A DNA stretch of 64,000 nucleotides from Antedon mediterranea (lineage: Eukaryota > Animalia > Echinodermata). This document shows, one piece after another, positions 2,836 to 64,000 of this stretch. Position 1 is the stretch's first letter; each line of letters begins with the position of its first letter. The stretch is taken from the NCBI RefSeq assembly GCF_964355755.1, contig NC_092680.1, forward strand, positions 2,976,001 to 3,040,000, in the 5' to 3' direction. The position numbers and the translations under genes were made by a program. A model generated the notes under the pieces. That model was not told the DNA's origin, ran no database searches, and worked only from the letters and a program-made list of their open reading frames with translations.

Positions 2836-2866
<31 letters not shown>

Positions 2867-9039: not shown

Positions 9040-9075
<36 letters not shown>

Positions 9076-26300: not shown

Positions 26301-29300
26301 TGAAGTAGATTCTTCTACCTTTCTTCAAACGACAAAGGACCTTTTCCTGGCCTGAAATAATTATCCAATATACTACTAGTCAAAACATACACACTTGTAT
26401 ACAAATTATGCTAAATAAAATGTGTTATCATTAATGAACATTTAGACACTTTGAAGTATTTAATATTAACAACAGCACAATATACATATCACATTCACAC
26501 CCCAACCTGCCGCAACCACACTTCCTCCAAACCCGCAACCTCATCCTCACCCCTCTTTAAAAAAATGCCAAAAAGAGAGATCTAAGTACAGATAACAATA
26601 TAGCTGATGAACAACTGTTGATATGATTATGTGAGGGCGTGTGCCGCAATGTGTTTACTGATTACTGATTGTGAGATCGTGGTTCGAATTCAACTTTTGC
26701 TCCATTGCTTGTATCCTTTAGGCAAACACTTTACTTACGTTTGCCTCTCTCCACCCAGGTGTATACATCGGTACCCGATTAGGTCAAGAAAAAATTTTGC
26801 ACCGATTACTAGCTGCATTATGGGAGTATGTTTCCATACAAGATCCAAAATAATGTGCAGCGCATTCAGAGATTGCTTATATACGATAAGAATGAACTAT
26901 TATATTATAATGATTGATAATGATGACAATGACAGGGGTTAATAAGAACAGTATTAATGACGCTATGGTAAAAACCCATTAGCAAATACATTACACTATC
27001 TGTAAACAATTAAATACTTTGTTACCTTTGCAAGTCAAACAGCTCCTTAAACATACAGATTACATACAAAGGTTTAGTATCCTCATCTAAACTCCAGGGT
27101 GAAAAATCATATCTGTAAATAAATTATTACATAACAACAGTAAATATTATTGTGTGTAATAGTAAAAAAAATAAGAATATTGAGCAAAAAATATAGCTGT
27201 CTCTGGGATAAAAGAAAACATGACATCCGATATAAAAGAAATTAATTATGGAGCATATAACAAGGATTATTACATAACAACAGTAAATATCATTGTGTGT
27301 AACAGTGAACAAAAATAAGAATATTGAGCCAAAAATATAGCTGTCTCTGGGATAAAAGAAAACATGACATCCGATATAAAAAAAATTAATTATGGAGCAT
27401 ATAGGATTGTATACAGTAGAAACACTATTTATTAAGCTCTGTTTACACTATCAAACTTTATGTGACAAAAAAATGTGATGTGCCCATATAATATGGACAT
27501 GATGATGTCATATCACTACCATATTTGGTTATATCACTACCATGTTTGGGCACATCACAGTAGTTTGATAGTGTAGACAGAGCTTAAATCAGGTTACCTT
27601 GCAAGGTCTGGCACAGGATCAGGCACTTGCATATTTATTAGCTTGGTGAACTCCTCTTCTGAACATTGGCGATGGTAGCTTAAGATCTCTAAGGCTACCC
27701 GGTGTTTTTGCTCTGACCGGCGTATCTTGTCGTACAGTTTGGCGTGATGTAATGCCAGGCCACAGTAAACCGCAAACGTTTCAAAAGCTTGTTCGTCTGC
27801 CCGAGTAAATGCGCCACTCTTTTTATTCACCATCTGCACTACACCGATAATGCTTCAGAAACAAAATGTACAGTATATAGGAGATTGATACCTATGTGCA
27901 TGAAAATGAGCAATAGGAAGATGCTATGACAAATTAGATCTCTAAAGTAGATCATTTTCATCAGGTTTTAATAATGATAATTAATTTCGAGGTTGAATCG
28001 TTGTTTCAAAATGTTTGTCTACCAATCAGAGAGAGTAACAAAATCCTGAAGGAAACAGAGAACAAACCTCTGACATCACAACCTTGAATTGACCAATGAC
28101 AAGCGACAGTACGAATAATCCATCGATTGTTATTGGTCAATCTACTTGCGTTGCAAACAAACAAACTTTATGTGACAACAAAAAGTGATGTGCCTATATA
28201 TGGTGATGATGTCATATTACTACCATATTTGGGAATATCACTACCATATTTGGGCACATCACACTGGTTTGATAGTGTAGACAGAGCTTTAAGCCATGTT
28301 GTACTTACTGTCCTCTTATCTTAATTGGCATACAGAGTAGAGACTTTGTAACATAACCTGTCTGTATATCAACTTGTCTATTAAACCTATCGTCAAGATA
28401 GGCATCAGGGATGTTGAGGATCTCTCCAGATGTTGCTACGTGTCCAGCTACTCCTTTACCAATCGGAAACCTACAGAATGAAAGCAATTATATCTTAAGC
28501 TCTATATACACTATCAAACTAGTTTGACAAAAAAAGTGTGATGTGCCCAAATATGGCAGTGATATTATCAAATACAGTATGTCCATATCATGGGCACATC
28601 ACACATTTTTGTCAAACTAGTTTGATAGTGTGGACAGAGTTTAAATATTTCTTAGGGGAATAATATATCTTTTTATAGTGAGGAAACTGCAATTCTTTAC
28701 AGCTATAGCCCTCTCTTTTCCTTCATCATGTGATCTCACTGTGTGTACTTATATTTCAGAAATTCAGAAATTATTCTGACAGCGCAATCCATCATCGATA
28801 TATCAAATTTCAGATAATTATATGGATTATAGATCAGGTATTAAAATTGATGACATAAAGCTAACTGACTGAAGATAATAAGGTTTGGATATTACAGGTA
28901 AACTATCAAGAAAGTGACACATTCTTTATATTAACATATTGACATATATCAGTAGTCAGAATCATCATCTACACTGATCCAAACTGACTTGCTGTAATGT
29001 ATATGAACGTAAAAAAAACAACAGTATTTTGGTTATCACACACAGTTGCATGGTGTTCAGGAGACAAGTTGAACATCTGGGACGCCTCCCTGGTGACTTG
29101 GGAGGTTTGAACATTGTATTGCCCTGTATAGGTACTAGAGAATGTTTGAGATTGTTCTACAGTAACTACAGTTCAGTAGCTGGAAATACTCCATTAACTA
29201 AATATGGAAATGTAGTCCACTTTATTTACCGTATCTCTTTGTGATCTTTCGTAACAACTTGGCTCCCTTGGCCATCACCTACATCAAATATTCTGGCATA

Positions 29301-32300
29301 TAGCTCTTTGCTTTTGTTGTCCACCAGAAAAAGAGATGCCCTGTCTGCACTTACAAGACGCTGAGCAAAATTCTAAATATAATATATATATATATATATT
29401 AACATATTATTTATTAAATATATGGCCGCTAAAGTGGCACATCATGCATGTACCATACAATTCTAAGTGATTTTATTTTTATAAGGTATATTAGTAGGGG
29501 ATCACGGATGGGAAAATAGCTAGGGCAAGGAAAAACAAAATGTAAGGTGTTTTTAACCATTCAAAAGTGTGAATCATCATCACAACAAGAAGTATAGTAA
29601 TAATTTAGCAAACAGCCTTTTTTGAACTCTTCCAAGAAATATATTTTTCAAAAAACATCAATTTTGGGGTCATTTTAGGATGTTGTCTGACCTTTTAAAA
29701 TTGGCAGTAGAACCCCTATTAAGGGGAGACTTTCCCATGAAACACACACAAAATAATATGTTGCCAATTTTAGTCAATGCCTATTCAGGGGACACCTGTA
29801 AAATAAGGGAAGACATTTTTGTATCTAAAAGGTGTCTATTTCAGCATAGAGATATTATAGTGAATATCTCTATGATTTCAGGTACTGTATCTATACTTGT
29901 ATCTTTTTGAGGAAAGAGTAATATTTGAGGAATTTTAAATGTGTAGTAGTACTTCTGTGTATAATTGTAAGTAAATGAAAATGATACCTGTCATAGGTCC
30001 CACTTAAGAACTATTATTAATGTGAAATATCCGAAAAAGATTAGCAATAATAAGTTATATTTGGTAACAAATACTAAACCTTTATCTGAGAATGTAAATA
30101 AACTTAGGTGGTCTATGCTTGGCCATATACTTAGAATGAGTGAAGATACTCCTGCTTTTTCAGCATTGGTGTTTGGTATAGTACACTCTAATTCAATAAA
30201 AGGGCGAATTGGAAAACATCAAACCAATCTGTTAAGTACACTTAGAAATGATTTATTTATCAGATTTTTAAGATAAATAATTTTAACGACCTAATTAATT
30301 TGCGTGAGATTGCCAGTAACAGAAATAAGTGGCTTTTGTTATTTTGAATCTTTATTTTTACATTATTTTATATTTTTTGTTGTTGTAGGATGCATGCATA
30401 TAAGAACGTATCAGATTTTGTAAATCCACAGTGCGTGGTTTTGTTACATTTTTTGGAATAAAGTTACCTATATATATATATATATAAATGAAAATTATAT
30501 TGATTGACACATGAATGTAATAGCTACCAGGGAACTAAAAATCAATAAAGCTGCATTATGAAATATATATCTCACCATTATTTTCATAATGACACTGTCC
30601 ATACTTATTATATCTTGAAATATCGATCTATATGAAATAATAATGAGGGTGGGAAAAGCATTCAATATAAAAATAACACAATTAACATCAAGCATTTGGT
30701 TAGGTACATCAAAATATAAACTCTACTAAGCATAACCTTGGTAACAAACAATTAAATTATTTTTGAATATTAAACAAAACTAATCAAACGACAGGCTTTG
30801 ATGTGATTAAGTTTCACAAATTTCATTTCTTAATCAGCCCTTGATTATATTTTTCAATCAATAATGTGATTAATTTTCCTCATGGTTAATTGACGCCAGT
30901 GCATATTTTTTCATCAGTTTAAATGCCCACACGTCTTTGATTCTTGCATATTTTTTTATTTATTATATAACTTTACATTTCAAAGATGTATACACTTTAA
31001 ATTACTCTTTGAGATTGAGATGTTTAAAGCTCTGTCTACACTATCAAACTTTATTTGACAAAAAATGTGATGTGCCCATATATGGACATGATGATGTCAT
31101 ATCACTACCATATTTGGGCATATTACTACCATATTTTGGCACAACACACCTTTTTTGTAAAACTAGTTTGATAGTGTAGACAGAGCTTTCGACAACCAGG
31201 TTGACGATCTAAGTTTGGCCGCCCTGTGGTTCATAAAACTTCTTTGTTATTTTACAAATATTCAGATACATATTGGATGAAAATACAGTGATTACATTTG
31301 CTATTGGCAAAACTTGGCAATATGCCAATGTAATCAATAAAAATATAAATCATAATTAATTATTACTCCACTTACTTCGTAACGTTCATTATAAAATCGT
31401 TGAGTTTTCTTTGCCGCGTCATGTTTTGATAAATCTAATAAAAAAAAAATAATGTAATATAAAAATTATAATAATTTTTTTTAAAAATACAAAAAATGAT
31501 GAAATAGATTGTGCTATTTTAGATTATAGATCAAATTATTATATATACAATAATATAAACAATATTTTATTTTAGATTGCAAGATAAAATTTAAAACACA
31601 AGGGTCTTATGTAATAAAATAAAATTACTAGTAATGTAAAAAAAAATAATTGAAGATGTTTTTAAAGATATTTAAAGAGTTTAACCATTTTAAAAACATA
31701 TCAATTCCCTCACATCTATTAAGCCGTGAATTTAATGTTCTCTAAAAACATAAGCAGGAAATCCTCTTTATATAAATCTGTTGACCTTTTAAACTAAAAA
31801 CAAGATAATCAAGAATCTGTTTACATTACTACATTGTACAATTCTATTTTTCTTATTCGTCTGTATATTATTATTATAAAAATGTAATATAATTTTATGT
31901 ATGAAAAACTCAAATTACATTTATCAGTTGTATTTGTAAAATGTTATCTTAAAATGCTGAAGTGATAATTTGGATGTTGTTTATGTTTATTACTCTTTTT
32001 CAATACATCAAAACAAATTTAAAACAAAAAAAATATGTCTCAGGGTGGGCTTAAATCCAGATTGGGACCTCAGGGTGAGCTTGTACAAAGATACACTTAT
32101 GTGTGAAAAACTTAAATTACATTTATCAGTTGTATTTGTAAAATGTTCTCTTAAAATGTTGACGTAATAATACATATCCATTTGGATGTTTTTTTGCATT
32201 TATTACTCTCATTCAATTCATCAAAACAAATTTAAAACAAAAAACCTTACAACTTGCACGTCATTGTAAGATAAGTACGTGTTTGCTGTACTATTGAAAC

Positions 32301-35300: not shown

Positions 35301-38300
35301 CATACCTTTCATGTTTAAATCCAACTTTTAATAAAAGATTTTATTTTGCTAATAATAAATCACATAGCGTCGATCCTAAGGGGTGGGTATGTATATTTCT
35401 AAACACAATTTTATATCTTTCATGTTTAAAATAACTAAATACACGATAAATTTTATTAAGCTATGCCACAGCAGATGCTGTCAAACTGCATGCAAAGACA
35501 TATGTATCATAAATGCCAGTTGCTTTATATATTGATGTCAATTTGTTTTTATGTGAATTTTTTTTGCGTTACATAATTTTCTCATTTTTTTGACACAACA
35601 TCGTGTTTATTGAATAAAATTTATATGGCACATTGAAAGGAAACGTGTGACTTCATTATCAATAGCCTCTGAACTGGACTGCATTGCTGTTATCAATAAT
35701 AATGTAAAGAATCGTAATTATGTAAAGACAGTTAATAGTTAAAGATGATGTATTTTCTCCATTAAAAACATAAAACATCATATTTTGAATAGGCCATTTT
35801 GCAGTTTCAATAAAATCATTCATTGCATAGTAAAAAAAGGAACAAAAATAAAAACAAAATAAATGGTTGCATTTAACCAAAAACCATTGTGACAAAATAT
35901 TGACTATTTTTTACTTAAATTACAGTTTTTTCAGGTAAATATTAATATTTTTCCAACTTTTGGTCAAAGTGAATAACTATTATGTTATAAAAAATTATTT
36001 TATAAGGGGGACGATACATCATCCGCAACCACGCCCACATGTGGGAACGTACCAACGTACCACCGTCATCATTTCATTTTCACGATATAGACTATAATAA
36101 TGTTAAGCTCTGTTTACACTATCAAACTTGATGTGACAACAAATGTGATTTTCCCATATATGGACATGATGATGTCATATCACAACCACATTTGGACATA
36201 CCACTAACATATTTAGGTACATCACTACCATATTTAGGCACATCACTACCATATTTAGGCACATCACTACCATATTTAGGCACATCACTACCATATTTAA
36301 GCCTTAAATGATGAGGTATCAACTACTATAAAGTAACAAATGTCAACGTCAGCAATCATCTCAAACGTCATTTAACTGCTATTTTTAAATAAATTGATAT
36401 TAACCTTTGTAGAATGCACTAAAAGCTTGACATTTAAAAGTCAGTATAATGATTATTGAATGTGTTTTGTATGTCTTGTCATACTATATTAATTAGAAAA
36501 AAACTTTTATTGCAGCATGTCGTTTAAGCAAATCATTAAAGTATTACATTTGTTTGAAATAAAAACAATAATTTACAAGACTGTGTCACACTAGTATTTG
36601 TTGACGAGAGAGACTGCAATCCAATTTCTCACTATGAATGCTTGATGTGTGTCCCCTATCCCTACCACCTTCTTTTCCAACTACCAGTATTAGGAAGCTT
36701 TTGATTTGCAACAAATGTTGTATACAAATAAAGTGTTCAACACTCTGTACACTATCAAACTAGTTTGACAAAAAAAATGTGATGTGCCCAAATATGGTAG
36801 TGATATGACATCATCCATATATGGGCACATCACATTTTTTGTCACATAAATTTTGATAATGTAGACAGAGCTTAATGTAATGATGGGTAAACAAAATACA
36901 AAACATGAATAAATATTAAAAGAAAAGTGTAACAATTTTTTTTTTAAATACACAAAATAAATACAATGGCGAGTGATGATGAGTAAGATGAGAAAACTTT
37001 TATATATATATATATTAATGTTATGTAATAATGTTCCTACCTCTGCATAGTAGTAGGCAAGGCTTCCCCATACTAAAAAGTTGCTTGCAATCTAAAAAGG
37101 AAGAAATATCCACAAATCATAATTATCAAAGCCATCTCCTAGTCCTATCTCAATTAAATTCTACATTTAATAAAAAAATATACATTAATCTGTACCCTTC
37201 ATCATTAAAATATGGGACATACCAAAGCATATCAATATTTATGTAATAATAATATATGTTCTAAACTAATTTTTTATGAACGTCAATTTTAGTTCGCAAA
37301 CTTCTGATGGGTGACAAGATCCCTGTTTAAGTCTACAATTATTTGATTATTTATTTTTATATATTTATTATTTTTGTTGGTACTGTATGTAAATCATAGT
37401 GTGTTGGCGACTGTCCAGCAGAACTTTATAAAATATTTATAAAATTAATTTGTTATCATAAATTCAATATAAAAAATATTCTATGCTGTGAATAACAGAT
37501 AATTATATAAAAAAATTGTTATTTAATATAATCATAATTTTCTTGCCAATGACAATATTTTAGGTGACAATACACCTTTAATTTACCTCTTCCTCCGATT
37601 CTGTAAAACCGGGATGGTTGGTCTTTTTATGGAATTCTAGGACACCTGCAACGAACATTACACAAAAAGACTAATAAAAAATGTATCATTGAATCAATAA
37701 AGAGAAAAACAACTTAAGCTCTGTCTACACTATCAAATTAGTTTAACAAAACAAATGTGATGTACCCAAATATGGTATTGGATTTGACATCATCCCTGTC
37801 CATATATGGGCACATTTTTTGTTGTCACATAAAGTGTGATAGTGTAGACAGAGCTACAGATTACAAAGAGATGACGGCAATTAAGGCAAGGAGATATTAT
37901 AAATTAATCCAAACTTGCATTCAGTATATTTTCAGTATAAATGAGGTACAACACACAATAATTTAAAATCAATTGAAACAAACAAAACTGTATGCAAACA
38001 ATTACATCATGCCAACACTTCCGTTTTACCAAGGAGAATCCAGTATTTTTAAGTTATCACCCAGCTTAACATTGATTTTCCCAGTTTTTCACACTTCTCC
38101 GGAAAACAAAATGTAGTTTATTTGAAAGTGTTTTATTAGGCCAGAGTCAACAATCCACACAATACTGTACACAGGCATCAGTTAAAGGTCTACTACAGAT
38201 TAAGTGCCAAAAACCTAGACTGTATTAAAATACTCACTAAACATACTACAGTGTGATGTGCAAAACTAAGAATGTGGAAAGCACAACAGTGTTAAATTGA

Positions 38301-41300
38301 AAGTGATGTAGGCTAAACCAATTTTACAGCATGGCCAAATCTACTATAAGTGTGTGAACTGAAACCACTATACAACAGTGTGAAAAACCTATTATAAATG
38401 TGCACAAAACTGCTATTACAAAACAGAGTGAAAAGTTGATCTAAATATGTATACTTTACAAGCTACTTGCAAAAGAAGATACTAAGAGTACAACAATTAC
38501 TAGAGATGGAACAACTAAACTTATTCACCAGTGTGCCACAAATACTACAGAAGTGCATCAATACTACAAATATACTACATGAGCGTGCCGCAAGAAGTGC
38601 AAAACCACAAAATTACTACAGTAATACATATAAAAAACTGCAGTAACTAGCAATATAGAGATGTTGGTGAAAGTAAAGTGTCCAAAAGTACTACATGGAA
38701 ATTTAGGGAATACTATTTAATATCTTTAAATCATTAGGCTAATATATTCGAATACCATGTATTCTGAAACTACTATAGTCATAAAAAAGTAAAAATCAAA
38801 ATATATTTTGAGCAGCATCTTATTCAATTTCATTTCATCTATTTCGTCTTACATATAACAACAAATAACAAACAATAGAGAGAGACAGGATTCCCAAAAG
38901 CGAACTAAATCAAACTGTCAAGTGGGTCTCCAAAACAACAATAGTGTTAAATAATATTAAAATAATATTAACATAAATCATCAATGAAAAACAAAGGTTA
39001 AATACTAACAGAAATGACTAAAAATAATATTACTGTACCAGCAACTTATATAAACTAATGAAATCATAATTAAAAATAATAATGATATGAAAGCTATGTG
39101 TTTTTTTTTTAAATACAGGTGGAGTTTGCCATAATATTTATGCAAATGAATCCAGGTGGCCGTGAAACACTAAGATGAGAATAGAGAAGAAACACAGTAC
39201 ATGTGAGGAGCTGTGTGTAGGATATGATTGTGTTAATATGTGTTGATACAATGTTGTATAAATACCCATAGCAGCTCCAAACATGTATATGCCTGGAAAT
39301 CCTGATGTTAAGACAAGGAGGGTTAGTCGGGATATTGTTAAGAATGTTTAAAAAAAAGCTTTGGAAAGTAGCAAGCAAGCAATTATGTAAGTTTAAACAG
39401 CAACTCTGGGTTTAATATTGCTTAAACCCTGTCTACACTATCAAACTTTATGAGACAAAAAAATGTGATATGCCCATATATGGACGTGATATGTTATATC
39501 ACTACCATATTTAAGCATATCACTACCATATTTGAGCACATTACTACCATATTTGGGCACATCACACATTTTTTGTCAAATTAGTTTGATAGTGTAGACA
39601 GAGCTTTACTGTGAATGTAGTCATAAATTAAAAAAAAAATACAACTTTCCTACACTGTCATTGTGAAAATATATGATTATTTATACTAAAAACATATTAA
39701 AAATTTGTAGTAATGCTTCCAAGAAAAAGCTATATAAATAGAAGTGTTGATTTACTGGAATGATGGGAATAAAAAATACATTAAATAACACATAGTTATG
39801 ATTGATGTCATAGTATAGCAATTTTAAACCCAGAATTGCTATGTAAATACTCAAAAAGATACACAATACAATAGAAGATAGGAAAATAGTTATATTAACT
39901 CTACTCTACAGTTATGTGTACAAGACAAATGACACAGTCCTTCATCTAAAACAAAACCTAAAGAATCCAAGAATGATAATTATGAGTATATTATAATTAA
40001 TTTAAAGATGGAGGCAGGTTAGTTTTGGTAAACATCAGTCAAAATTAAAGGGAATTGGTAATGTCATCTAGATAAAACTAATCCAAATATTTCTAATGTC
40101 AACTTGATGGCACCTAATACAATTCAATTTGGCATTTAAGTCACCTCATTCTGAGGGTAGAATATTGGGTTTTTTTTAATGTTGAAAATGACTTGCCAAC
40201 CAGTTCGGTTATGTAAATTACTGACAAAATAGTGCCTTGATTATGGAAAGAGTCATGTATTTACAATTTCTTTGCGCTTGTTATTTCAGACCTCACCTTT
40301 ATACCTTTTTTTGTCTTGATTATAAATTCTTTTCTTCTTATTTTAGCTTGGTCTGATAATGATAATTTTACTGGACTTACAGTTAGAATTTAATCAACAA
40401 AAACTTAATTTCGAAGCCTCTGAATTAGCAATTGGATATCAGATAATTTGAATAATCACTTTATGAATGACCTAGCAAGAAAATTATAGTTAAGATTCAT
40501 AAAATTGATTAACGACTGAACGTACTTACCAGATACATTGTTATTAGCATGAAAAATGGGTAGGCCTAGAGCGGCTTTGATTGTTGTGTCCTTAAGTGCA
40601 AGGCCTTCCGGATACTGCGTATGCTAAAGTTAACATATAAAGCTTGATTAATAATGAATCGTTAAGGGTAAAAAACATGATTACATTGAACATTCATTAC
40701 ACAGTATCCATCCAAATAATGGACTCGTTACTGAAGATTAATTTCTCTTCGTATCTTTAGGAGGCTACATTTTCTTATTTTTAATAGCATTAATGGAAGG
40801 TTATAATGGACATGATTAGTAATTACACACTGTGAGTGAGTGTGACTGTGACAGCAATTGTATGCAGAAAACCACATACTACATTTGATGGAAATTTGAA
40901 GTATAATCTCTCACAGTAGCTATACTGTAAAGCCTTGTCTACACTATCAAACTTAATGTGACAAAAAAATGTGATGTGCCCATATATGGACATGATGATG
41001 TCATATCACTACCATATTTAAGCATATTACACTTTTTTTGTCACACTAGTTTGATAGTGTAAACAGAGCTTAAAATGCAAAATATGGAACGGTATGAATA
41101 GTATTAAGGTACCTGTATTAAAGTTTATTGTTTAATAGATCAAGATGTTCTATTAAATTTATTTTAAAGACATTACTGAGTAAATTTGCATTGTTGCATT
41201 TAAATTAATTTATTTATATTTTACTGTTTAGATTTAAGATATTTGTTTGGTCGGATATTTTATAATAAGATATTTGGTGCATTTTAAGAAATTTGTTTAA

Positions 41301-44300
41301 TATAAGTTTGACCACTAATATCATGCGTGCTGCCACTTTTGCAAAAGTGAAATTCAATAAATTGATAATTTATTTACGTCAGAAGATTTCACTGTCTATA
41401 TAAAGGTAAATTGTTGTAAATAAATTTAATTTTGGCGCAACCGTTTATTTTTTCAGCATTGGTTCTAGATATAAATAAAAAAATCCTTGATGGCAATAAT
41501 CTTTATGCAGTAAACAACATCCAGGTACTGGTAACAAAACAAGACTTTGAACTAGGATTCAACTTCTAGGAATCGCTTATGGTCTATTACTATTAGAAAG
41601 AGAAATGTCAATAAGACGTCAATCAACTTACCATAGCAGCCAAATCATTTGTACAAACTGCGCTCTGTGAATAGGCCACAAAGCCAGCAAATGTTTTACC
41701 CTTTTCAATTGACCATCTTTGAGAAGAAGAGGTGTCAGGCCTAAAATAAATATGAAAGGATGGAGTTATTAACAACTATAAAGAACAGATTTATTTAAAG
41801 ATGTACAGCATCTTCATAAACATGAAAAAGTGAAAATTAATAAAATCAGACTATGAATACAGTAGGTCATTTTACAATTTTAATAAAGTTAAAGTATTCA
41901 CTTCTGTAGAAAAACAACCCCCAAAAAATACTTATTTCACTTAATAAACACAAAAGAAAACAATTTTTAGCAAAAAAAAAACCTTGTCTGACAGAAATTT
42001 AAGTATTTTTTGCTTTAAATTACATTTTTTCAGGTACATTTTTTTTTCAATCCAGTTTTCGGTCAACGTGAATACGGTAACTGTTACGTTACGATATGAT
42101 TAAAATCTCATATTAAATACAAAATATATAAAAAATTTTGTTAGGGGGACAATATACAGTATCTAAAGAACAGATTCATTTAAGAAATTGATACATAGAC
42201 ATCTCAGTGATTTGTCTGCGTTGGTGTCCCATCATTATTTTTGATAATTTTGTGGAACTCGGCGCTAATAATCTGCCCAAAGGCCAAATTCAAGCAATGT
42301 TTTTATTAAATATGCCAAAGCATTTGATTAAAAATGATTAAAATTTACTTCAGTATACAGTAGTGATGTGTAAAGAAACAAATAACTGCAATTAATTTAT
42401 TATTATAAATTTAATTAAAAATAGCAACTGATTAACAATCAACTCATAATCATTTTTTTTTTAATATTATATTGTGCATGCCCACATGTATGGTAGTGTA
42501 CTGATAGAGAAATGGACTGTATTTATTATATCAGTAAAAAATATCAGCAAGCATATTTTCATCAAATTTAAAATATGTTATGATGTCATCATACCGTAAC
42601 AGTCATGTAAACATTTTATCTACTGTAATTATGAAACTAAAATTTACAAAATGAAAAATATTTTTTAAAATATGTATTATGATCTTTCATCTTGAAATGT
42701 ATTTTAAGTTTAAAAAACCCAAAAAAAAAAACATACCAACTTTCTCCTGGTTTATATTCATACAACTCCTGAAATAAAAATGTGTCTATGTTTAAATTTA
42801 ATTTTTATTCATTTGGTGTTTGCATTTTTTAGAAAAGTTGGAGACAATAATGTCTGCAATAATAGCAAATAACATTTCCAGGCGCCATAATATAAGTTAA
42901 AATACATGCCATTAAAAATAATCTTATGGTGCCACATTAGAATTGTTAAAAACACACACATTATCCTTAATGGAAGAAATTACCAACCACATTACACACA
43001 AAATTGATACTATATTTTGACCTCAAAACCATTATTTATTAATAAGGGAAGTAGATGCTAAGCTTGTGGCTGTATATCACTGCAAGATGCAGAAATTGTG
43101 ACATTTCCAAGTAAATTGTACAAATTGTACAAGTGACATTTAAAGGTACTGTACTGATCAGACATGTAAAAAAAAACTATAAAAATATATTTAGAATCAC
43201 GTTTTGCTTTTCAAAAGGCTTTAGCTTACTGTACTATAATGTTTTTGTAAATTACAAAAACATTAGGTATATTACAAATTAGTATTGGATGTGTCCTGGT
43301 TTAGCAAGATCTACACAATATTAACTACGCACCATTTCTGTTTCATTCACAAGGTAAAGTCGATAACTGTCTGCGTTGATTAGCGCCGCAACGCACTCTG
43401 CCAGCTCGTGAAGTACAAACACTTTATGAGGCTGTTGCTGAAGATCTTGTGTAAGCTCAAACAAAACCTTCCGTCGATCTCTTTTATGCGGACTCTGAAA
43501 TGAAAATTAATAGCCATGATGTCTTCAGTATATATGTTAAAACTTGAAACATTCAATAAAGCTCTGTCTCCACTGTCACCACTACCATATTTGGGAATGT
43601 CACTACCATATTTGGGAATGTCACTACCATATTTGGGAATGTCACTACCATATTTGGGAATGTCACTACCATATTTGGGAAAATGACACCTTTTTGTCAA
43701 ACTATAGTTTGATAGAGTAGACAGAGCTTAAAGATATATCGTCCCCCAAAAACATAAAAAATGAAGATTAATTAAGTCAGACTTTGAATATGTTATTTTG
43801 TAGTTTTAATGTTTTTACTTATAAAAAGGCCAAAATAAATGGTTAATATCAACCAAAAATCCCTTGGCTGGCGGCAGCCAATTTGACCATTTTTTTGCTT
43901 TAAATTACATTTTTTCAGGTAAACACATTTTTTTTCCCATCCAATTTTTGGTCAAAGTGGACAACTATTATGTTACAATAAAATGGAATATTCAACAAAA
44001 AAATGTTAAGAATTATTTTTTCAGGGGGACAAAACATGTTTAAGAATTTCAATTCAAACACGTATATCAAATTTTAGAACAAAAACAAAACAAGGTAATC
44101 AGCAATTTGTTCTTATTTCGTTCATAATCATACATATAATATTAAGTCTATTACGTACTATCTTTTTCAAATTGCCCAATATATTATAATTATGGTTCAA
44201 ACATACCATCTATCAATTGGTTTGAAAGAGCATCACATGATTACGAAAAGATTTGACTATCTCGAACGGTGGCATGTTGGACAAATTACCAAATAATATA

Positions 44301-47300: not shown

Positions 47301-50300
47301 AATGGCATGAAAATCAATTTTCTATGACCATCAGAAAAACCTCTCTTCTCTAAGGAGATCCACTTAATGTATAGTGCATACAGTCTATCAGAAGAGATTG
47401 CTGAAAACATATTTCATCAATTCTATGATGTAATCGGATGCTTTTTATATTTAACAAAATGTAATTTTAACTCAGAAGAACACTGATCATCAAATAGAAT
47501 TTGAAAGAGTGTTTTAAATTCCGGATTTCAATTTTGAATTCACACCAAAATAAAACATCAACATTGTTGTCAGTCTTGTGTGTGCAAACTCTGGAGATTT
47601 ACTAGGAGATTCGAAATGGGTATTATAGAGTCCTGCAGTGCTGATGTCACGACGGTAGGTGGCACTGCGTGCGGGACTGCATGGTTGCTAGCCAACCATA
47701 AATTGCGTTCAAACTGCCCGAGTGACTCCAAGGTCATGGTTGGAATAGGCTTATTGAAGTAGTCATTTTAAAACATAATAATTTTCAATAAAAACAAACA
47801 GATCACTAAATATTTGTTTTTAATAATCTATTTATTCTTCAACTACAGTTTAAGTTTTAGAAAATCAAGCTATTAAAGATACATAATTTAATAGAAACAC
47901 AGATCTATAGTGTATATCAAATTTTGGTTGCACCAGCAACCACGCAGCGCCATCTATCGTTATGACGTCACACCGCAGAACTCTATATAGTATAATTAGA
48001 CTGCAATCTTTTTTGTAAAGCTGCTGACGTACCTGTTCCATTTACTATGTTATGATCAACATGATGATGCGAGTTGTCATGTTTTGTTAAATACTTTGCA
48101 GTCCACTTCTCCAGTTGTGACTGATTGATATTATTCAAAACATATTCTTCTACAAAGTCTGGGTTGTCATTCAAGTAGGTTTTTACTTGTTCTCTCATCA
48201 ATGGTTGTTCTGGAAGAAAACATAAGTTTAGTTATTTTTATGGAGAACAAATTATAGATTTTTTTTTTTTTTTATGCGCATCCAACAGCGAGTAACTTGA
48301 CAATTACAGGATGGATAAACTATTCAATAACTTTTCATGCTTATAAACTAAGTCTCATTGGAGTTGAAAGAGTCGTGAGTAATACAACCCTCGCACTAGG
48401 TCAGGATTGAACCCTGCATCTTGGGATTGGAAGGCAAGCATGTTAAACCACCAAGCTACAACTCCACTAGATTTAATTATAGACATACTGCAGCATGAGA
48501 GACCCAAAAAAAAAGCTGTAATTTTTATATAAATATAATTGTAAAGTATTGAAATATAATAGAACGCCCTCTATAATTTTGTGGATGTTGCTCCTAGGTC
48601 TAATATATAGGGGTGTGACCAAATTCCAGGAGAGATGAATTTTGGGTTTGAACAGCGACACATCTCCAACTCGACACTTTTCTAATTTTTTGTTGTGACA
48701 AATTGTTTATTTGGAACTTGTTTGTAACTTTTACAACTTGTTTATAACTTTGAAAGCTTGGTTAATTGTATGAAACATTTATGTGTAATTTGGCAACATT
48801 TGTGATTTCGACAACCTTGTTACTTTTTATATCTGTTTTGAACTGGGAGTAGTTCAAGTGCATCTGTTTACTGTGATTGGTATATTTGAGGCGTCAAAGT
48901 CAGAACAGAACGGAAGATCGGTCTATTGTAAATAAATTGTAGATATTGTATTTGCTGGATCAGTGTCTTTTGTTATCTGCGTCGATTGACCACACACGCC
49001 ACCAAGCGAACTCGCGTAGTACGCTACAGTGATTGACTAGCCTATACGAGTATGGCAGAAGATAGGAAGACTACGCTGACTTTGCAGCGCCGAAACAGAA
49101 AGGGATTGGTAACAAGAAGTTTGAACACTTTGAGCGCATTGTTAAAAACGGAAGGAGTTACTATTGTTGACATAGACGACCAATTAGAGCGGGTGGACGA
49201 GGCATTCAAAGTAGTAGAAAAGGCCCATCTCGCGTTGTTGGATGTCATTGATGACGATGACATATTTGAGCAAGAAGAGGAGTGGATGGCGAAAGTAGAA
49301 AAAGAATATACAGATCAGAGGAGGAGCGCATTGGCTCATTCTTGCGAATTGAGGAAAGTAGACCATGGTAATGGAAAGGTCGACGCTGCCAACAACCAAC
49401 AAGGAACTAAGGCGGTCGGTGAGCTAAAGACTAGTAGTAGTAATTTAAGTATGGATAGCCTAGTGAAGGCGATGTCTTTACCTAGGCCCGAATTACAAAT
49501 GTATGATGGCAATCCTTTAAGGTATTGGCCATTTATAAGAGCCTTTGATGTATTAATGTCGGAGGTATCTGACGACAATTTTAAACTGACTACCTTATTA
49601 AAATATTGTAGGGGTAGAGCAAGTGACGCCCTACAATGTTGCCTTATGCGGCCCCCAACTGAAGGGTACAAACTGGCAAGGGAAATCCTCTCAGAGAGGT
49701 TCGGAGATAAAGGGACGATCGTCCAGACCTGGGTAGATAAGATTGTAAATCGCCCTAAGATTGACGTTGCCGAGTTAAGGCAATTTACCGACGATTTATC
49801 ATCCTGCAGGGAAACGCTAGATGCGATGGGTTTTCTTGGGGAATTAAATAACCAACGTAGCCTTAGGTCAATAATTGACAAGTTACCACGATACTTACAG
49901 ATAAGGTGGGTTAAAGAATATCAAAGGATAAAGCTTAGAGGCAGTCCACCTACCATTGCACATGTTGTTGACTTTGTTAAATCGGCCTCTAAGGAGGCAA
50001 ATGATCCTGTATTTGGTAGCCTTGTCTCGGGTAGTGCAGGTAACAAGCCAGAGAGACAGACGACCAGCAACAGAGAACCCGAAAAACGCCGAAATAAGAA
50101 TTTTGCCATCGGATCCCCGTCCTGTCAAATGTGTGAAGGTTCTCATTCTTTATTTGGTTGTCTACAGTTTAAAGAAAAGAATGTTGAAGAAAGGCTATCA
50201 TTCGTAAAGAGGAACCGGCTATGCTTTAATTGCCTAAAACCTGGACATAACGCATCAAGATGTCTATTGAATAGGACATGCTCGGTAGCTGGATGTGGAC

Positions 50301-53300
50301 AGAAACACACCAAGTTCCTTCATATAATTAAGCCAAAGGCGACACAACAACAACAACAACAACAACAAGCCCCCGCATCTAAAGCTCAGCCACATCAAGC
50401 AGAGCAGACACCAGCTGCTAGTGTACCGCAGCAACCACAGACGCAGCCAGTTGGGCACGCCGACAAGATGAACACCTTCATCTCATTACCAATCTTGCCG
50501 GTCACAATACGATCACCGGAAAGTGGGATAGAGGTAGACGCATACGCACTATTGGACAGTGGGAGTACAAGCTCATTTTGTACAGAGAGATTGGCAAAGA
50601 CGTTGAAGGTGAGAGGTAGACCGGAGAACCTGATCATTAACACCATCGGTGATAATGAAAGCAGTGTACCCAGCAGAATAATCAGTCTGGAAGTGAGAGG
50701 CATGGGTGGAGGAGAACCTGTAGCACTCCCACTAGTATATTCCACACGAAAAATGACAATTCGCTCTTCGACAAGTCGAGCCTTGAAGTTGGATGAAGTG
50801 AACAAATGGCCTCATCTAAATGGAGTTAATCTCCCACGACTAGACAACTCAGAGGTGGACCTCCTAATTGGGCTAGATGTTCCAGATGCGTTACAACCGC
50901 TTGAAATAAGAGCCGGTGGAAAAGGGGAACCGTATGCCACACGAACATCCCTTGGGTGGTCCCTAAACGGTCCTGTTATGGGAAGAAATGAGAAGAGATC
51001 TTCCACGTTTGCTTGCGAGATTCAGAACAACGTGAGGCTTGATCAGATACTGGAGAGATTTTGGACAACTGATTGTGACGTACCTGCATTGGATGACGAT
51101 GACAGAATGATGTCTGTTAATGACAAAAGAGTAGTTAAACTATGGGATCAAAATGTACAGTTTAAGGATGGACATTACCATTTACCTATTCCCTTCAAGC
51201 AACGCCCGCCTATTTTACCGGACAATAGACATACTGCTGAAGTCAGACTTGGCCATCTCCGACGGAAATTGGTGAAGGATGTAAGCCTTAAAGCCAAATA
51301 TGCTGAGGTTATTAAAACCCTAGTTGAAGAAAATCATGCAGAACCTGTAGGTAACCGCAATTCGACGTTCCCAAATTGGTATCTGCCACACCACGCTGTC
51401 CCCAAGAAGAATGGTGACGTACGAGTAGTATTCGATTGCGCGGCAAAACATAGGGGTCTATCGCTAAATGACGTAGTCATGCAGGGACCAGATCTTGTCA
51501 ACAGCCTGATGGGGGTCCTTCTGAGATTCCGCCGGCGACAATACGCCATCATGGGTGACATCAAGGCTATGTTTCATCAGGTTAGGGTGCCACCAAATGA
51601 AAGGGAGGTTCTTCGATTTCTTTGGTGGACAGACGACGAAATGACGGAAGTGAGTACCTACCGTATGTGTGTGCACCTGTTTGGTGGAACCTGGTGCCCA
51701 AGCGCGAGCACTTATGCTCTAAGAAAGGCGGCACAAGATAACCGTGCTAAAGTTGATGTTAATATCACTGAGATTGTGAATGAAAATTTCTACGTGGACG
51801 ACGCTCTAATCTCTGTTTCAACTGAAGAAGAAGGAGTTAGAGTTTTAAAGAATCTGACGGCCTTGTTATCCATGGGAGGGTTCAAGTTGACGAAATGGAT
51901 AGCCAATAGCTCAGAAATCCTACGTCATGTTCCAGTGGAGGACAGGGCCACGACGGTTAAGGAGCTTGACCTAGAAGGTGCCATCCTACCATCCGAAAAG
52001 GCACTAGGGATGAAGTGGAATGTCGAAGACGACACGTTTGGATTTAATGTAAACCACAAGGACACACCAAAAACTCGTAGAGGGGTGTTAAGTGCATTAA
52101 GCTCGGTGTTCGATCCCCATGGATTCGCAGCACCATTCACGTTGAGGGGCAAACTCATCGTGCAACAACTCGTGCGTCGGGGCGTTGATTGGGATGAGTC
52201 GGTTCCGGATGACTTGTTGTCACGTTGGCAATCATGGCAGAACGATCTCCAGAACTTACAAAACCTAAAGATACCTAGATGTCTAGAAGACAACGTGTTC
52301 GGTACTGTGGTGGCACGAGAGTTACACCACTTCGCTGACGCTTCAGAAATAGCGTATGGGGTGACTACGTACCTACGTACGACAAATGAGGACAACTGCA
52401 CTAGGAGTGCACTTATACTAGCCAAGTCACGTCTATGCCCCATGAAAACTGTGACTATACCGCGATTAGAACTAATGGCGGCGACACTGGCAGTAAAGAT
52501 TGACAAGACACTGACTCGTGAAATTGGGCTGAAAATGGGGAAATCTTGTTTTTGGACTGACAGTATGATAGTTCTGCAGTACATCAAGAATGAAGAAAGG
52601 CGGTTTAAGACGTTCGTTAGCAACAGGTTAGCGACTATACACGACGGCTCTAATCCGGAACAATGGAGACATATCGAGGGGATACATAACCCGGCAGATA
52701 TTGTATCGAGAGGCCTCGAAGCGAGGCTGCTGGTAAACAACAAGTTTTGGTTGGAGGGTCCCACATTTTTAAGACAAGATACTGACAAAACCTGGCCTAT
52801 GCAACCAGATGGGTATGGTGATGTAAGCGCTGATGATCTAGAGGTGAAGAAATCTGTGAATGTGTGTACCAACGTGCAAGATAACGTTGTTATTCAACAC
52901 TATTTCGATCGATATTCGTCTTGGGTTGGATTAAAGCGAAGTGTAGCTTGGATATTGCGATTCAAAAGTTATGTCGTCCTTAAGAAAAGGAATGACATTC
53001 AGAGCCTTATCTGTGACAAACTCACGGTGGATGAAACCAAACAAGCAGAGAGGGTGATTATTCAGTATACCCAATCCACACGCTATAAAGACATCACAAA
53101 CATTAAGGGATTGGGAGCCTTCCTGGCTGACGATGGTATTATTCGGATTGGTGGTCGAATAGAACTGCAGACAACCCTCACCACTGACCAACGACATCAA
53201 ATTTTGTTGCCATGCGATAACCACGTAACCAACCTCGTTATACGGCATTACCATCTTCAAACAGGACATGGGGGTATTGAACGCACGCTGGCTGATATAA

Positions 53301-56300
53301 GACAGAAGTTTTGGTTGGTGAAGGGTCGGAGGAGCGTGAGACGGGAACTGTCACAGTGTATCGTGTGTAAGAGGATGAAAGCTCGGCCAACTGATCAAAT
53401 TATGGGTCTACTACCGAAGTCAAGGATGCAGATTGGCGAACCGCCATTCTCCAGGGTGGGTGTGGACTATTTTGGACCACTCGTCATTAAGCGTGGACGC
53501 ACAGAACATAAACGCTACGGTTGCGTGTTTACTTGCATGACGACACGAGCTGTCCATATAGAAGTCGCCCATTCTATGACGACGGATTCATTTATAAATG
53601 TATTGCAGAGGTTTATCGCTCGACGAGGAGTACCTCAAGAGATGGTCTCCGATAATGGCACGAACTTCGTTGGGGCCAAGCAAGAGCTCAGACGGGCCAT
53701 GACCGAATGGAATCGTCAACATATCGACAACTTTATGTTGCAGAAGGAAATCAGCTGGTCATTCAACCCACCGAAGGCGTCTCACATGGGCGGAGTCTGG
53801 GAAAGACAAATTCGCACTATAAGAACCATTATGTATAGTCTTGTGCGCCAACAGACACTTGATGATGAGAGTCTCACTACTCTGATGTGTGTCATCGAGA
53901 ACATCGTTAACAGCAGGCCTATTACGAAACTGTCCGACGATCCAAGTGATGATCAACCATTGACTCCTAACCATTTACTCCTGCTGAGGAGTGGACCATC
54001 CTTGCCTCCTGGACACTTTGCAGAGCAAGACATCTACAGGAGACGGTGGCGACAAGTCCAGTATCTCGCTGATATATTTTGGAGAAGGTGGGTGAAGGAA
54101 TACCTTCCATTGCTACAACATCGGCAAAAATGGGGTATGGAGAAAAGAGATCTTAAAATTGGTGATCTCGTCCTTATTACCGATAACTCTACTCCGCGCT
54201 ATCAATGGCCACTGGGGTTGGTGGTGGATGTGAATGTAGGTAGTGACGGACATGTAAGATCTGTACATATTAGAACTAAGGGTGGTGTCTATGAGAGACC
54301 TATAACCAAGTTATGTATGCTCGAAAGAGCTAATTAAGACCCTATAGTCGTGTTTACTATGTACATATGTATTTAGTTTTTATAATATTTCATTTACCTT
54401 TTTATTAAGTGATTGTTAAACCCGTTTGGTTTAAAGGGGGGAGTGTAAAGTATTGAAATATAATAGAACGCCCTCTATAATTTTGTGGATGTTGCTCCTA
54501 GGTCTAATATATAGGGGTGTGACCAAATTCCAGGAGAGATGAATTTTGGGTTTGAACAGCGACACATCTCCAACTCGACACTTTTCTAATTTTTTGTTGT
54601 GACAAATTGTTTATTTGGAACTTGTTTGTAACTTTTACAACTTGTTTATAACTTTGAAAGCTTGGTTAATTGTATGAAACATTTATGTGTAATTTGGCAA
54701 CATTTGTGATTTCGACAACCTTGTTACTTTTTATATCTGTTTTGAACTGGGAGTAGTTCAAGTGCATCTGTTTACTGTGATTGGTATATTTGAGGCGTCA
54801 AAGTCAGAACAGAACGGAAGATCGGTCTATTGTAAATAAATTGTAGATATTGTATTTGCTGGATCAGTGTCTTTTGTTATCTGCGTCGATTGACCACACA
54901 CGCCACCAAGCGAACTCGCGTAGTACGCTACAATAATAAAAGGCAATTTCAAAATTGTGACATTTCAAAATGTTATGCTTGGGTTGGTGAATTCTTCCAA
55001 AAACCTACAGTACATTGGTTTTTGTCTTAATTGTCATTTGGTGAATATTGAGAACTAACAGTACTTCAATATAGTAGATGGTCTAACATTTTTCACTAAC
55101 AACTTTTAAATCAACATAGCAAATTTACTTTACAATTTATATATGAAACATTATCTAAATCCAATATTTAGGTAATTTCCAGCAGGCGCCACATAATACT
55201 GCAATCTATACAGCTTCACTTACAAAGGAAATCAGTATTATTATTGGAGGTGGAGAAATTTCCAGCAATTATACTTTAATTGATAATAGAAGAGAATTGA
55301 TAGACTGTCTGTCATTTCCCAGTGTCATTAAATTGAGTACTTTGTAATTATATAACTATACAATATTGATATTACAGCCGCCTGATGGAATCTTAAATAC
55401 AGAAGTATACAATTCTTTGTGTCGTGTGAAAGTATAATGATAAAATTTGACATACAGCAGCGTACATTAAAGCAGCTAGTGTACCTTAATGGTAAAAAAA
55501 GATTCTACAAAATTATGAAATTGTTAATTGTTATTTGCATGCTAATTAATATACAACAAGATTAATTCCCATGCTGTATGTGTTTATTATGTTTACGTCA
55601 CATAAAGCTCTGTCTACACTATCAAACTAGTTTAACTTAGAGATACTATCGCCAGTGTTCAGAAGAGGAGTTTACCAAGCTAATAAATATGCAAGTACAG
55701 CACCTGATCCTGTGCCAGACCTTGCAAGGTAACCTGATTTAAACTCTGTCTACACTATCAAACTAGTTTGCCTTAGAGATCTTAAGCTACTATCGCCAGT
55801 GTTCAGAAGAGGAGTAATAGTAATACCAAGCTAATAAATATGCAAGTACAGCACCTGATCCTGTGCCAGATCTTGCAAGGTAACCTGATTTAAACTCTGT
55901 CTACACTATTAAACTAGTGTGATGTGTCCAAATATGCTTGTGATATGCTTAAATATGGTAGTGATATGACATCATCATGTCCATATATGGGCACATCACA
56001 TTTGTTTGTCACATAAAGTTTGATAGTGTAGACAGAGCTTAAGTGATGAAAACATACAAGCACCCATACAATTCTTTTTAGTTTATTTTTCTTAGGAACT
56101 AATATCACATATTTTATTAATTTAATTGAACATTTCAGAATACTTGTTTTTGTGATCAGTGAATGCTTTCTAATTATGATGTCACAAATAAGGCATCAAA
56201 TTACAGTACGTTACCATAGAAACTTGATAACAGAAATGATTAAAACTAGCTGTAATGAGCACTTTGTGTTTGTTGGCTATATAGTGTAGAAACACATTCG

Positions 56301-59300
56301 ATTATAATTTTTTTTACAAAATATTTTCATTTTCATTTTGTTGTGGCAGCTATCAGTATCACTCAGCATTATGGATTTCAGTATACATCTAAAATGTTTT
56401 AATCTATTGGTAATTTGGCCATGCACCTTTTGTGTTGTCTTTTTGCAGCTTTCTATAGATAAAAAAAAAATATACATAATTGCCTGCTATTAGTCTATGA
56501 CAATAATTTATTTCCTCACCTGAAGGAGGGATATAACCTTCCATAGAGTCAGTATGCACAAGTGTGTGATGGTGGTGATGGGAGTGATGGTTAAATGACG
56601 GTGCCATCAGATACTGTCTGGAACTACTCGGACCAATTGTAGTAGATTGACCTGAAATTAAAAACAAATTAATTATATTCTGATACTATCTTTTTGTCTT
56701 GTTGGCCTTTTGTTCATTCACAATTACAATAATTATAAGTGGGTAATAATATACATTAGTAATTTTATATTGTCTTGTATCTGTCAAATTTACCAAGCTG
56801 TTCTGTCACAGGGGGTTAGTGATAAGGGTGTTTTCACTGAAGAAAATCCTAAAATTTATTTAGAAATCATAGATATTTATGAATCGATCTCAATGGAGAG
56901 ACAGCGTAAAATTGGTTGAGATTCAGACTGTACTATTTTGTACAGTTTTTGGAAATACACAACTGTACTTTTGCCTCATCATTCAGATAGAGCAGTTTGT
57001 ACAATGCATGATAAATTAAGACGGTAGGGGATTGCTGTACAGATCAATATATGCACTGTAATAACAAGAATTTTTTTTTAGCAACCACACCGCTCATCTC
57101 ACGATAACTACCATCTACATGCATCTCAATATTTATCAGCAAATGTTCTCATTATAAATTCATAGACTCTTTTTTTTAGCAGACGTGCTTTTGGGTGTGG
57201 TGCGTATACCCAGAGAGTCTGACTTTCCATCTATTTTTTCAGTCGTGAGTTTTAAATTACTGTATAAGCTACTGCATGGTACAGTAACTGTTTCCTAATG
57301 CCTCCGTGCTCTTGAATAAAGGGCCTTTCACACCTGCTCCGGCACGCCTCTGGTCCGGCGACGGCAAATCCAATCGAACGTCAATGTTTCGTTTTTACGC
57401 GGCTACGCGCATATCGATTGGTGCTTGGCCGCGTGGAGCGCCGTGAAAACGAAACATTGGCGTTCGATTCGCCGGACTGGAACCGTGCCGGAACAGGTGT
57501 GAAACACCCTTAAAACTGTCTAAAGGAGCGGCGCGAAAATACTGTAGATTAATGTTAAGTTCGTAGTTTACTATATAAATAATTGAACAAGAAATGAATT
57601 AACATTGAATTTAAATATAAATAAATATATTTGCCACAAATAGGTCATAATACAAAACCTTAAGGCTGTTTGTATTAGGTTTTTCAAACATAATATTGTA
57701 AGCTTCATGCAGCTACTTAATCATGCCTTTGATAGTGTGTATGTTTATGCACTGATTTAAGCTCACATTTGTTTGCACTCTCCATGGCGACATCCCTGCA
57801 GCAAGTGGGCTTTATTTGTATGGAAACATTATGGCAGTATTGTAATATGAACTAGCATTGAATTAATTGCAAATAGTTGTATTGAGAAATATGTTAATGC
57901 TTCAATAACCATCTGTCACATCAATCTTAAGATTTTACATACGTTAGCATTTTTTTTCTTAATTAATGTACATTACTATAATAATAGGTGATTGACATTG
58001 ATTCATGCTAACATTCTGATTTACTGACACCAATTCTTTAAAGCTTTGTTTACACTATCAAACTTTATGTGACAAAAAAATATGATGTGCCCATAAATGG
58101 ACATGTCATATCACTACCATATTTGGGCATATCACTACCATTTTTGGCACATCACACTTTTTTGTCAAACGCTTGGTATAATTAATATAAAACCATTTTT
58201 TTTTTTTTTTTGTAAACAAAGGCAGCTAAAAAATCGGGCATTTTTTGGCATTTTCGCTTTTGAGTATCATAATAACATTTATCATTTATATTATTTTTTG
58301 AAATTGATAACTTGCTTATTCCTGTATCTTTAACTCACCTGGAACATTTTACCAATGATTTTAAATTTAAAAAAAAATTAAAAATAAATAATTTAAACAT
58401 CAGCTATTATTTTGAGCAACAATTTATATTCATTTGTTTTGTTTTTAAATCCTACAGAAACCCGTCAACTTTTTGTTTTCACAATGCGCAAATTAGTCAG
58501 TGTCAAGCTAAACAATCTACACAGAATCATACACCCTGTGACTGACGTAAAAATACTACTGAAATTTTCTATTCAAGTTGAGAATTCTGCATATTTGGAA
58601 TACGAAACAAAATCAAGAACATTAAATGTATTTGTGCATATCTAGAGATATCATTTGTATGATTTATGATTAATATACGATGAATCAACTAAACATTAAA
58701 GTATGTAATTTATGTCTGCAGTTTGCTTTTGAATATTGTCATATTATTTTTACCGCATAATTATCTACAGACAGATTTAAGACATTTTAAGAATTTTCTG
58801 TCATTAAAGTTTGGTAATACACGCTCAAAAATCATTCTTTCAACTTTTAAATAAAATATTTCCAATACAACATTCATTAATGTATACTATTTTATAACTG
58901 TTAATTTCCCATGGAAAATGCAATATTACCAGAGTTTTGTCAATTGAAACAAATTATTTAAAGATCGATCAACTATTAATTTTACTTTTTGAAAATGTTC
59001 ACCATCATCATACTCCATCATGTTTTTAACTTTAAAATTGTATTGTCCGCGAAAAACATGAAAAATGAAGATTTATTTATTAAATCAGACTTTGAACATG
59101 TTATTTTATAGTTTTAATCAAGTTGATCACTTCCGTACAACTAATTGTTAATATTAAATTGGAATATTCAACCCAAATTTTGTTAAAAAACAATACATCT
59201 TTAAACATAGATCTCTAGTAGTAAGAGATCTTGTAATACAGGTAGTACATTGTACTTTGTGTAGTCAACTGAAGACGTATGGTGATAATTGAGAATTTTC

Positions 59301-63559: not shown

Positions 63560-63826
63560 CTAGAATACACCAGCAAAGATGGTAAGCACAAGCGACAAAA
63601 TGACGACAACGGCGCTAGCCGCAGCTTGACTGGATCCACTAACAGACATGCAGGTGACCGCTTCGTAGGATTTCAAGTATTCTTGCCCAGCCCATTTCTG
63701 ATAGGTATTCTTCTCGCCAACATCGACCAACTTGATGGTTGAATCCTTAAATATCAAGTCCTTGCCAGAATAGTCGGCCGAGTCAAATATCTTGAACCTT
63801 GAACCGGTTTCATCTGCAAACAGCCT
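63560..63826 (-). CDS. MELTF: Melanotransferrin-like protein, last coding exon with GPI-anchor signal
   Basis: RLFADETGSRFKIFDSADYSGKDLIFKDSTIKLVDVGEKNTYQKWAGQEY...C matches the transferrin C-lobe end (F.FDS..Y.G.DL.FKD.T); followed by small-residue omega region SGSS and a hydrophobic tail; CAG acceptor at 63827-63829. Confidence 0.88.
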   Translation of the reverse strand, partial: RLFADETGSRFKIFDSADYSGKDLIFKDSTIKLVDVGEKNTYQKWAGQEYLKSYEAVTCMSVSGSSQAAASAVVVILSLVLTIFAGVF

Positions 63827-64000
63827 CTGTAAAATTAAATAATTTCATCAGTATACATCTTTTAGATTTAGATTCAATTCAACATACAATGAAAAAGTAA
63901 ATATATAACTATCAAACTAGAGTACACTAAAACATTTAAAACAAACAACCACATATTAGGGAGGTTTCGAAACGCTAAGAATATGATAATGAAAACAGAT

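Follow-up and report, generated by a model that had tools for sequence, protein, structure and literature searches.

How did the 3′ end of a coding exon, together with its 5′ splice site, come to lie twice and inverted within a transposable element in an intron of the gene to which the exon belongs, and does it act on that gene from there? The question is posed by the window analysed here, a stretch of 64,000 nucleotides of Antedon mediterranea DNA, for which an initial annotation, made from the letters alone, had described at 55606-56039 a MITE that captured and duplicated an exon of its host gene. Nine sequencing runs cover the region, all as contigs, and six of them (X1, X2, X5, X6, X7 and X9) were compared. 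Run X1 derives from organism A and may be the assembly's own sample; run X5 can only be guessed to be RNA, and run X9 is RNA-like, its pieces ending at exon borders. For contig ends on the minus strand, record position 1 was taken as the right-hand end, following the source contigs.

Host gene and composite element

The exon at 27.6-27.85 kb translates to the linker between the GAF and catalytic regions of a phosphodiesterase and is identical to the Antedon mediterranea protein 'probable pde-5'. The corresponding gene, 'probable 3′,5′-cyclic phosphodiesterase pde-5' (XP_071964649-55), occupies 18881-59984 on the minus strand; all seven RefSeq isoforms map there by exact match, from 59984 to about 18881, and isoform X1 contains 26 coding exons. 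Coding exon 17 of that isoform (27598-27852, minus strand; 255 nt, phase 2-2) encodes the end of the second GAF region and the linker to the catalytic domain, and it is present with an identical donor in 7/7 isoforms. The composite element is found 28 kb from it, inside intron 2 (about 48210-56519, minus strand), and 14 exons separate the two. Since the exact mapping of the seven isoforms spans both places, the captured tract does sit, as had been claimed, antisense within the same pre-mRNA as its source.

Several further features of the gene and its surroundings were observed. Two mutually exclusive, paralogous exons of 37 codons in the catalytic domain (21219-21109 and 20319-20209, minus strand) distinguish isoforms X1 and X2; of 122 homologues matched, 6 are closer to the second form, this gene's own X2 and five relatives, echinoderms among them, and the exon switch may be conserved in echinoderms. 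Small cassette exons at 39300-39266, 34762-34733 and 26351-26319 (12, 10 and 11 codons, respectively) vary among the RefSeq isoforms. The composite shares intron 2 with a full-length BEL/Pao LTR retrotransposon (48540-54932, plus strand), which has one open frame of 1766 aa, 489-bp LTRs that are 100% identical and a 5-bp ATAAT duplication, and is very recent; its 3′ LTR lies 670 bp from the composite and antisense to the gene, and flank contigs from the related organism B are unlike it past 54978. Neighbouring genes encode an astacin protease (703-3617, plus strand), a death-domain protein (13137-15705, plus strand) and a transferrin-domain protein, of which the end is seen (63560-63844, minus strand), and 4325-9967 is taken up by 5.6 kb of degenerate GAT/GATGATGTAT satellite, whose plus strand is nearly free of C.

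The structure of the composite is confirmed: TIR, fragment, TIR, fragment and whole MITE follow one another within TAA repeats, and the initial annotation was accurate here down to the coordinates. Read on the plus strand, the left 3-bp TSD (TAA, 55603-55605), whose site is also found with flank and TIR in organism B, is followed by TIR stub 1 (55606-55635), some 30 nt of a MITE left end, and by fragment 1 (55636-55741), which comprises the 3′ end of exon 17, its donor (GT at 55729-30) and the spacer beyond it. TIR stub 2 (55742-55769) then precedes fragment 2 (55770-55892), a copy of 27695-27585 with its donor GT at 55880-81, and the terminal whole MITE (55893-56039), 147 bp long and carrying a TIR-proximal deletion of about 13 nt. 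The right TSD (TAA, 56040-56042) closes the element; a 1100-bp contig of run X1 covers this right end and its flank (56019-56750) with 0 differences. The fragments, 106 and 123 nt in length, lie inside intact outer TIRs, and with the TSD also intact the description of the outer ends as undamaged proved correct.

Stub 2 is chimeric, starting like the terminal MITE and ending like stub 1, as expected from tandem duplication between TIRs. TIR position 27 is T in both stubs, in stub 1 as in most undeleted copies of the family, versus G in the terminal MITE. At its join to the fragment, stub 2 has 1 nt (G) in common with the source, which is within chance, and the join is blurred at stub 1. Three other tandem duplications of 90-260 bp occur outside MITEs within the 64-kb window. 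A simple pattern scan for a cryptic exon found no donor- or acceptor-like motif on the gene's strand over 55501-56150.

The donor tract (27585-27695, minus strand) is made up of the last 98 nt of coding exon 17, the 5′ splice site and a 13-nt spacer to the adjacent source MITE. On the minus strand, 27695-27585 is 85-91% identical to the fragments, in agreement with their first assignment as its reverse complement, and this tract is the sole match to them in the 64-kb window. Alignment of fragment 2 plus MITE against 27695-27432 gives 87.7% identity over 276 columns, and fragment 2 against the source reaches 141 bits, the best of 200 shuffles scoring 33.7. Of the 27 exons tested, only one occurs twice in the window. 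The two fragments have a 5-nt insertion and C>T changes in common, after which fragment 1 lost 8 nt and fragment 2, subsequent to the duplication, gained 7 nt and one private C>T; this succession of shared and then private changes upholds the view that capture preceded duplication. The difference 'agtacagcacc vs agtgcc', which had been offered as derived, is so with respect to the 5-nt insertion but not to the A, which is also the sister species' allele.

The MITE family and the route of capture

At least 16 MITE copies, in both orientations, are found at 21339-63262, and the set analysed comprised 16 copies, some partial, from 21-64 kb. Their ends read AGCT...AGCT. Identical TAA or TTA flanks on both sides were observed in 6 of the 11 two-ended copies, TTA/TAA flanks in two and a single altered flank in three. 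The TSD rule for PIF/Harbinger elements is a 3-bp TWA, as given in the available part of PMC4482050. The copies analysed here resemble PIF/Harbinger MITEs in their 3-bp TWA TSD, a TIR starting with A, a length of about 150 bp and a high copy number, and they depart from the rule in the 2/11 copies, source included, with TTA/TAA flanks; a TTAA or TA target site was rejected in favour of the 3-bp TWA. PIF/Harbinger MITEs of this kind are labelled 'Tourist-like'. A tree of the 16 copies is star-like, with support of 67 or less and with the terminal and source copies unpaired, and the copies lie at a median of 5.4% from the window consensus, which together point to an old burst.

Some members of the family and some nearby repeats have features of their own. 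The MITEs at 27435-27584 and 28498-28641 are flanked by TTA at one end and by TAA at the opposite end, with no true 3-bp duplication, and the 28498 copy has an identical inner end type on both sides; in the copies at 36106-36300 and 43560-43728, an internal 21-bp unit has expanded to 5-6 copies. Another repeat of high copy number, some 60 bp long (28085-28150), lies just upstream of exon 17 and is present in both organisms. RT-like remnants were recognised by eye at 21488-22087 and 29971-30276, the first without a Pfam match. Five matches to Rfam all fell below the gathering score and were discarded, the match to MIR1435 being the MITE hairpin. A TIR scan of metagenome contigs gave 0 matches, and hence neither outside copies nor a transposase.

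The source, or sister, MITE (27435-27584, minus strand) lies 13 nt downstream of the exon 17 donor, a position at which organism B also has a TIR. It is identical to the terminal MITE at 134/147 aligned positions, ranking 6th of 15 by identity, and it gives the terminal MITE's best global score because of the TIR-proximal deletion that the two share. This deletion had been read as pointing to the source locus. The two copies do share it, but the copy at 28160-28288 carries it too, and as proof of source it was rejected on that account. Terminal and source MITEs have no derived substitution in common (0/8 and 0/5), and the terminal MITE has two in common with the copy at 40931-41070. What identifies the source, as judged by alignment, is the unbroken run of exon, donor, spacer and TIR, next to which the deletion is weak evidence.

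The reading that we favour, with a probability of roughly 0.7, is that the composite is a repair-mediated duplication, that is, a single-copy Pack-TIR, produced by ectopic copying between sister MITEs and followed by tandem duplication and neutral decay. A Harbinger-type MITE flanked by TAA repeats would already have occupied 55606, pointing the opposite way to the sister copy next to the exon 17 donor. After a break or excision, its right-hand end would have invaded the sister 28 kb away, and copying would have proceeded through the sister's left end and then for about 110 nt into exon 17. A 1-nt microhomology would then have served to join the new strand to the left stub of 30 nt, the resulting stub-plus-fragment unit would have been duplicated in tandem, by slippage or by unequal exchange between TIRs, and both fragments would have decayed since. 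The contiguous copy of exon, donor, spacer and TIR supports the template switch or gap repair between sister MITEs that had been put forward, a repair pathway that we infer; the star-like MITE tree gives no position for the switch. Stub 1 is likely the left end of a MITE resident at the site, as suggested by the one diagnostic base at TIR position 27, and the resident-MITE step would rest on this base, the enclosing TSD and the organism B TIR at the site. The wording 'MITE that captured' is apt in that the exon copy lies inside a MITE and overstates the transposon's part, for there is no sign of post-capture movement. We also considered whether end bypass had run to a cryptic TIR within exon 17 and rejected this, the sequence upstream of 27695 not being TIR-like.

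Composite transposition would yield an identical final anatomy and TSD if the end of an upstream MITE (e.g. 31187 or 28641) and the far end of the source MITE had moved together and an internal deletion had followed. The left end at 31187, which has the correct orientation, matches stub 1 over 28/28 nt, but these 28 nt hardly depart from the family consensus, which makes the match of little value as evidence, and the route requires a deletion of 1-3.5 kb ending exactly at the TIR edge. Also against it, the terminal MITE has no derived substitution in common with the source and has two in common with 40931-41070, which weakly hints that its body came from elsewhere than the source. According to the available text of Tan et al. 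(PMC8277862), parents with adjacent TEs were dropped from their survey, and the pipeline may miss this class. On balance we consider composite transposition unlikely.

Copy number, age and precedents

In run X1, a 137-bp contig covers 55747-55883 with 1 differing letter. The unit 2 contig has a depth of 344.5, versus the 342-376 expected for two collapsed units, and a second identical composite would raise the depth to about 685-750. Among the contigs listed for this run, only two, corresponding to unit 2 and to the source, cover 55816. In run X1 and among its listed contigs, depth and contig count fit one locus, and depth in that run gave no indication of the several copies with differing TSD flanks by which a mobilised multicopy Pack element would be recognised; diverged copies could have escaped this measure. 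A mobile Pack-MITE, formed elsewhere or since spread to other loci, would agree with the intact outer TIRs and TSD and with the great abundance of the family (16 copies in 21-64 kb, and tens of thousands of contigs with a match). It is nevertheless at odds with the one-locus depth and contig count and with residence in the same gene as the donor, as is the tendency of single-copy cases, and we hold it to be very improbable. An assembly artefact could be suspected wherever tandem units are bounded by a high-copy repeat and, as here, no contig spans the whole element; it is scarcely credible for this locus, where an ordered series of shared and private changes sets the units apart from the source and from one another, two of these changes matching another species, and where read-derived contigs run across the stub 2 junction and the right end.

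Organism B, a related species, differs at 51/650 letters, or about 8%, in the left flank. In its runs X6 and X7 the orthologous flank runs into TAA and TIR, and the contigs stop in the TIR, with no plain MITE seen at the site; run X7 also has a TIR beside the exon 17 donor. Over fragment 2, run X6 contains a source-type contig only, and at 55848-55852 run X7 has a single contig of unexplained origin, perhaps of composite type; on 27632-27691 even the unit contigs of organism A did not align, so that an absence there carries little weight. The copied tract harbours three A/B differences, of which two, the synonymous sites 27666 and 27624, show the B state in both fragments and the third, a 2-nt insertion in the intron, shows the A state; a second organism A sample (run X5) matches the window at all exon positions. 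The B alleles at two sites of the fragments imply that the capture predates two changes in the A lineage. Judged from these alleles, the capture is about as old as the A/B split or older, and it is not recent. Decay amounts to 3-4 substitutions and 2 indels per unit. With the MITE median of 5.4% as reference, substitutions in the fragments are not fewer than neutral (P=0.15-0.29 for fewer), although some 110 nt of copied tract give such a test little power, and the copies are likely to be neutral.

Related events have been described in other animals. The available text of Pace 2009 (PMC2671141) reports that exons and splice sites are among the sequences copied by repair-mediated duplications within TEs, and that an inverted exon copy lies in an intron of its own gene in human ACSBG2. 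As in the duplications defined there, the insertion analysed here is at least 50 bp long, interrupts a TE, corresponds to one other locus (in the window and the run X1 contigs) and has neither poly(A) nor a TSD of its own. The definition also looks for an uninterrupted TE at the outgroup's orthologous site, where organism B shows flank, TAA and TIR up to the contig ends. Donor and acceptor are within 5 kb of each other in 824/1,136 of those cases, and the 28 kb observed here falls in the tail of the known distances. Unlike the cases in the text available, a sister copy of the TE accompanies the donor here and could have offered one end long homology, a later duplication affected the unit, and the host is an echinoderm, the published survey being one of vertebrates.

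Animal Pack-TIRs, as characterised in the accessible portion of Tan 2021 (PMC8277862), are single-copy in 98.6% of cases, cis-biased and usually associated with microhomology, and the set is mostly hAT or TcMariner. The composite resembles them in having more than 100 bp of host sequence between two TIRs, a retained TSD, an exonic parent on the same chromosome and, apparently, a single copy, the 1 nt shared at the stub 2 join being within chance as a microhomology; both fragments fall within the 100-5000 bp of non-TE sequence between both termini used in that study, and the parent is unambiguous in the window and among the contigs listed for run X1. It differs from them in that its breakpoint is terminal (30 nt in) rather than internal, in an identity of 85-91% against a cut-off of at least 90%, and in the position of the source MITE at 13 nt, given that the published filter against segmental duplication and end bypass admits no TE within 100 bp of the parent. 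The case looks like, and likely arose like, these Pack-TIRs, even though the filter on neighbouring TEs would remove it. A literature search of incomplete coverage found no published report of an effect from a MITE-captured exon that lies antisense within its own gene, and nothing on such a case among Antedon transposons. The locus provides a clean, datable echinoderm example of what is probably repair-mediated exon capture, of a sub-type in which the donor adjoins a sister element and which the filters of published Pack-TIR screens remove, and it would show a dense MITE family steering ectopic repair within one gene.

Possible pairing with exon 17 and regulation of the gene

It had been proposed that the element could mask the exon 17 donor, serve as a partner strand for ADAR or yield siRNAs. 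The part of this proposal that stands is that a duplex is thermodynamically possible; the regulatory role itself is unsupported, with the donor used in 7/7 isoforms, and the element probably does not regulate the gene. As a co-opted cis-antisense regulator, the composite would act through fragments that pair with exon 17 and its donor in nascent RNA or yield small RNAs, and the outcome would be editing at a low level, exon 17 skipped in frame or exons 3-17 looped out. The predicted duplexes are strong (-165 and -182 kcal/mol), with 40 nt paired perfectly across the donor, and of the gene's 54 inverted matches these 2 alone touch an exon. The composite is also predicted to fold on itself (-146.5 kcal/mol, z -7.5), however, and its MITE parts have nearer inverted partners, at 0.9 and 2.0 kb. 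The copy has lasted through about one species split, but of the six substitutions that separate exon and TIR from the copies, four break pairs, two give G-U and none is compensatory, small as these numbers are, and the indels are likewise uncompensated.

Timing is a further obstacle to such pairing. With 14 exons between the partners, the 3′ splice site of intron 2 is transcribed 20.6 kb before the exon 17 donor, whereas in the available text of 10.1101/611020 a few kb suffice for the splicing of most introns, which occurs within about 2 kb in fly cells and, in human cells, after about 4 kb; these figures come from fly and human cells rather than echinoderms, and long introns are slower. Editing of Alu elements declines with distance on a scale of about 800 bp and is weaker across exon/intron segments, according to the part of PMC4066801 available. 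Pairing over 30 kb does control the splicing of ATE1 in the accessible text of Kalinina et al. 2021 (PMC7797038), and the R2-R5 elements of that gene are comparable to the present pair in being complementary, about 30 kb apart and within one pre-mRNA. The ATE1 elements, however, are conserved among vertebrates, enclose a single exon and have been tested, whereas the pair described here spans 14 exons, is decaying and has no effect seen. Sense/antisense pairing is called possible for Pack-TIRs by Tan et al., in the text available (PMC8277862).

Transcript evidence is in line with normal splicing. RNA-like contigs from organism A (run X5, 0 differences) and organism B (run X9) end at the normal exon borders, so that the normal donor is seen in both species as well as in 7/7 isoforms; flanking exons were left out of this comparison, so that junctions skipping exon 17 would not have shown, and contigs drop rare forms and NMD targets. 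Taken together, we regard a cis-antisense function as improbable, and the same small probability is attached to its most specific form, an antisense switch. In such a switch, a lingering intron 2 would allow the copies to pair over the exon 17 donor, causing in-frame loss of the 85 codons that join the GAF region to the catalytic domain, a frameshifting loop-out from exon 2 to exon 18, or editing at the A-C mismatch at 27666. If true, this would constitute pairing across 14 exons, and genomes dense in MITEs would have, in repair between sister MITEs, a general source of antisense regulators within genes; the importance of the locus would be far greater if an effect on exon 17 were shown. Position 27666 also sets a trap for analyses of editing: reads of the copies show G in place of the A of exon 17, and their mis-mapping would mimic A-to-I editing. 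Within the pre-mRNA, the 54 inverted matches counted above are those of at least 80 bp, and their nearer pairs, at 0.9-2.3 kb, are better candidates for editing than the composite.
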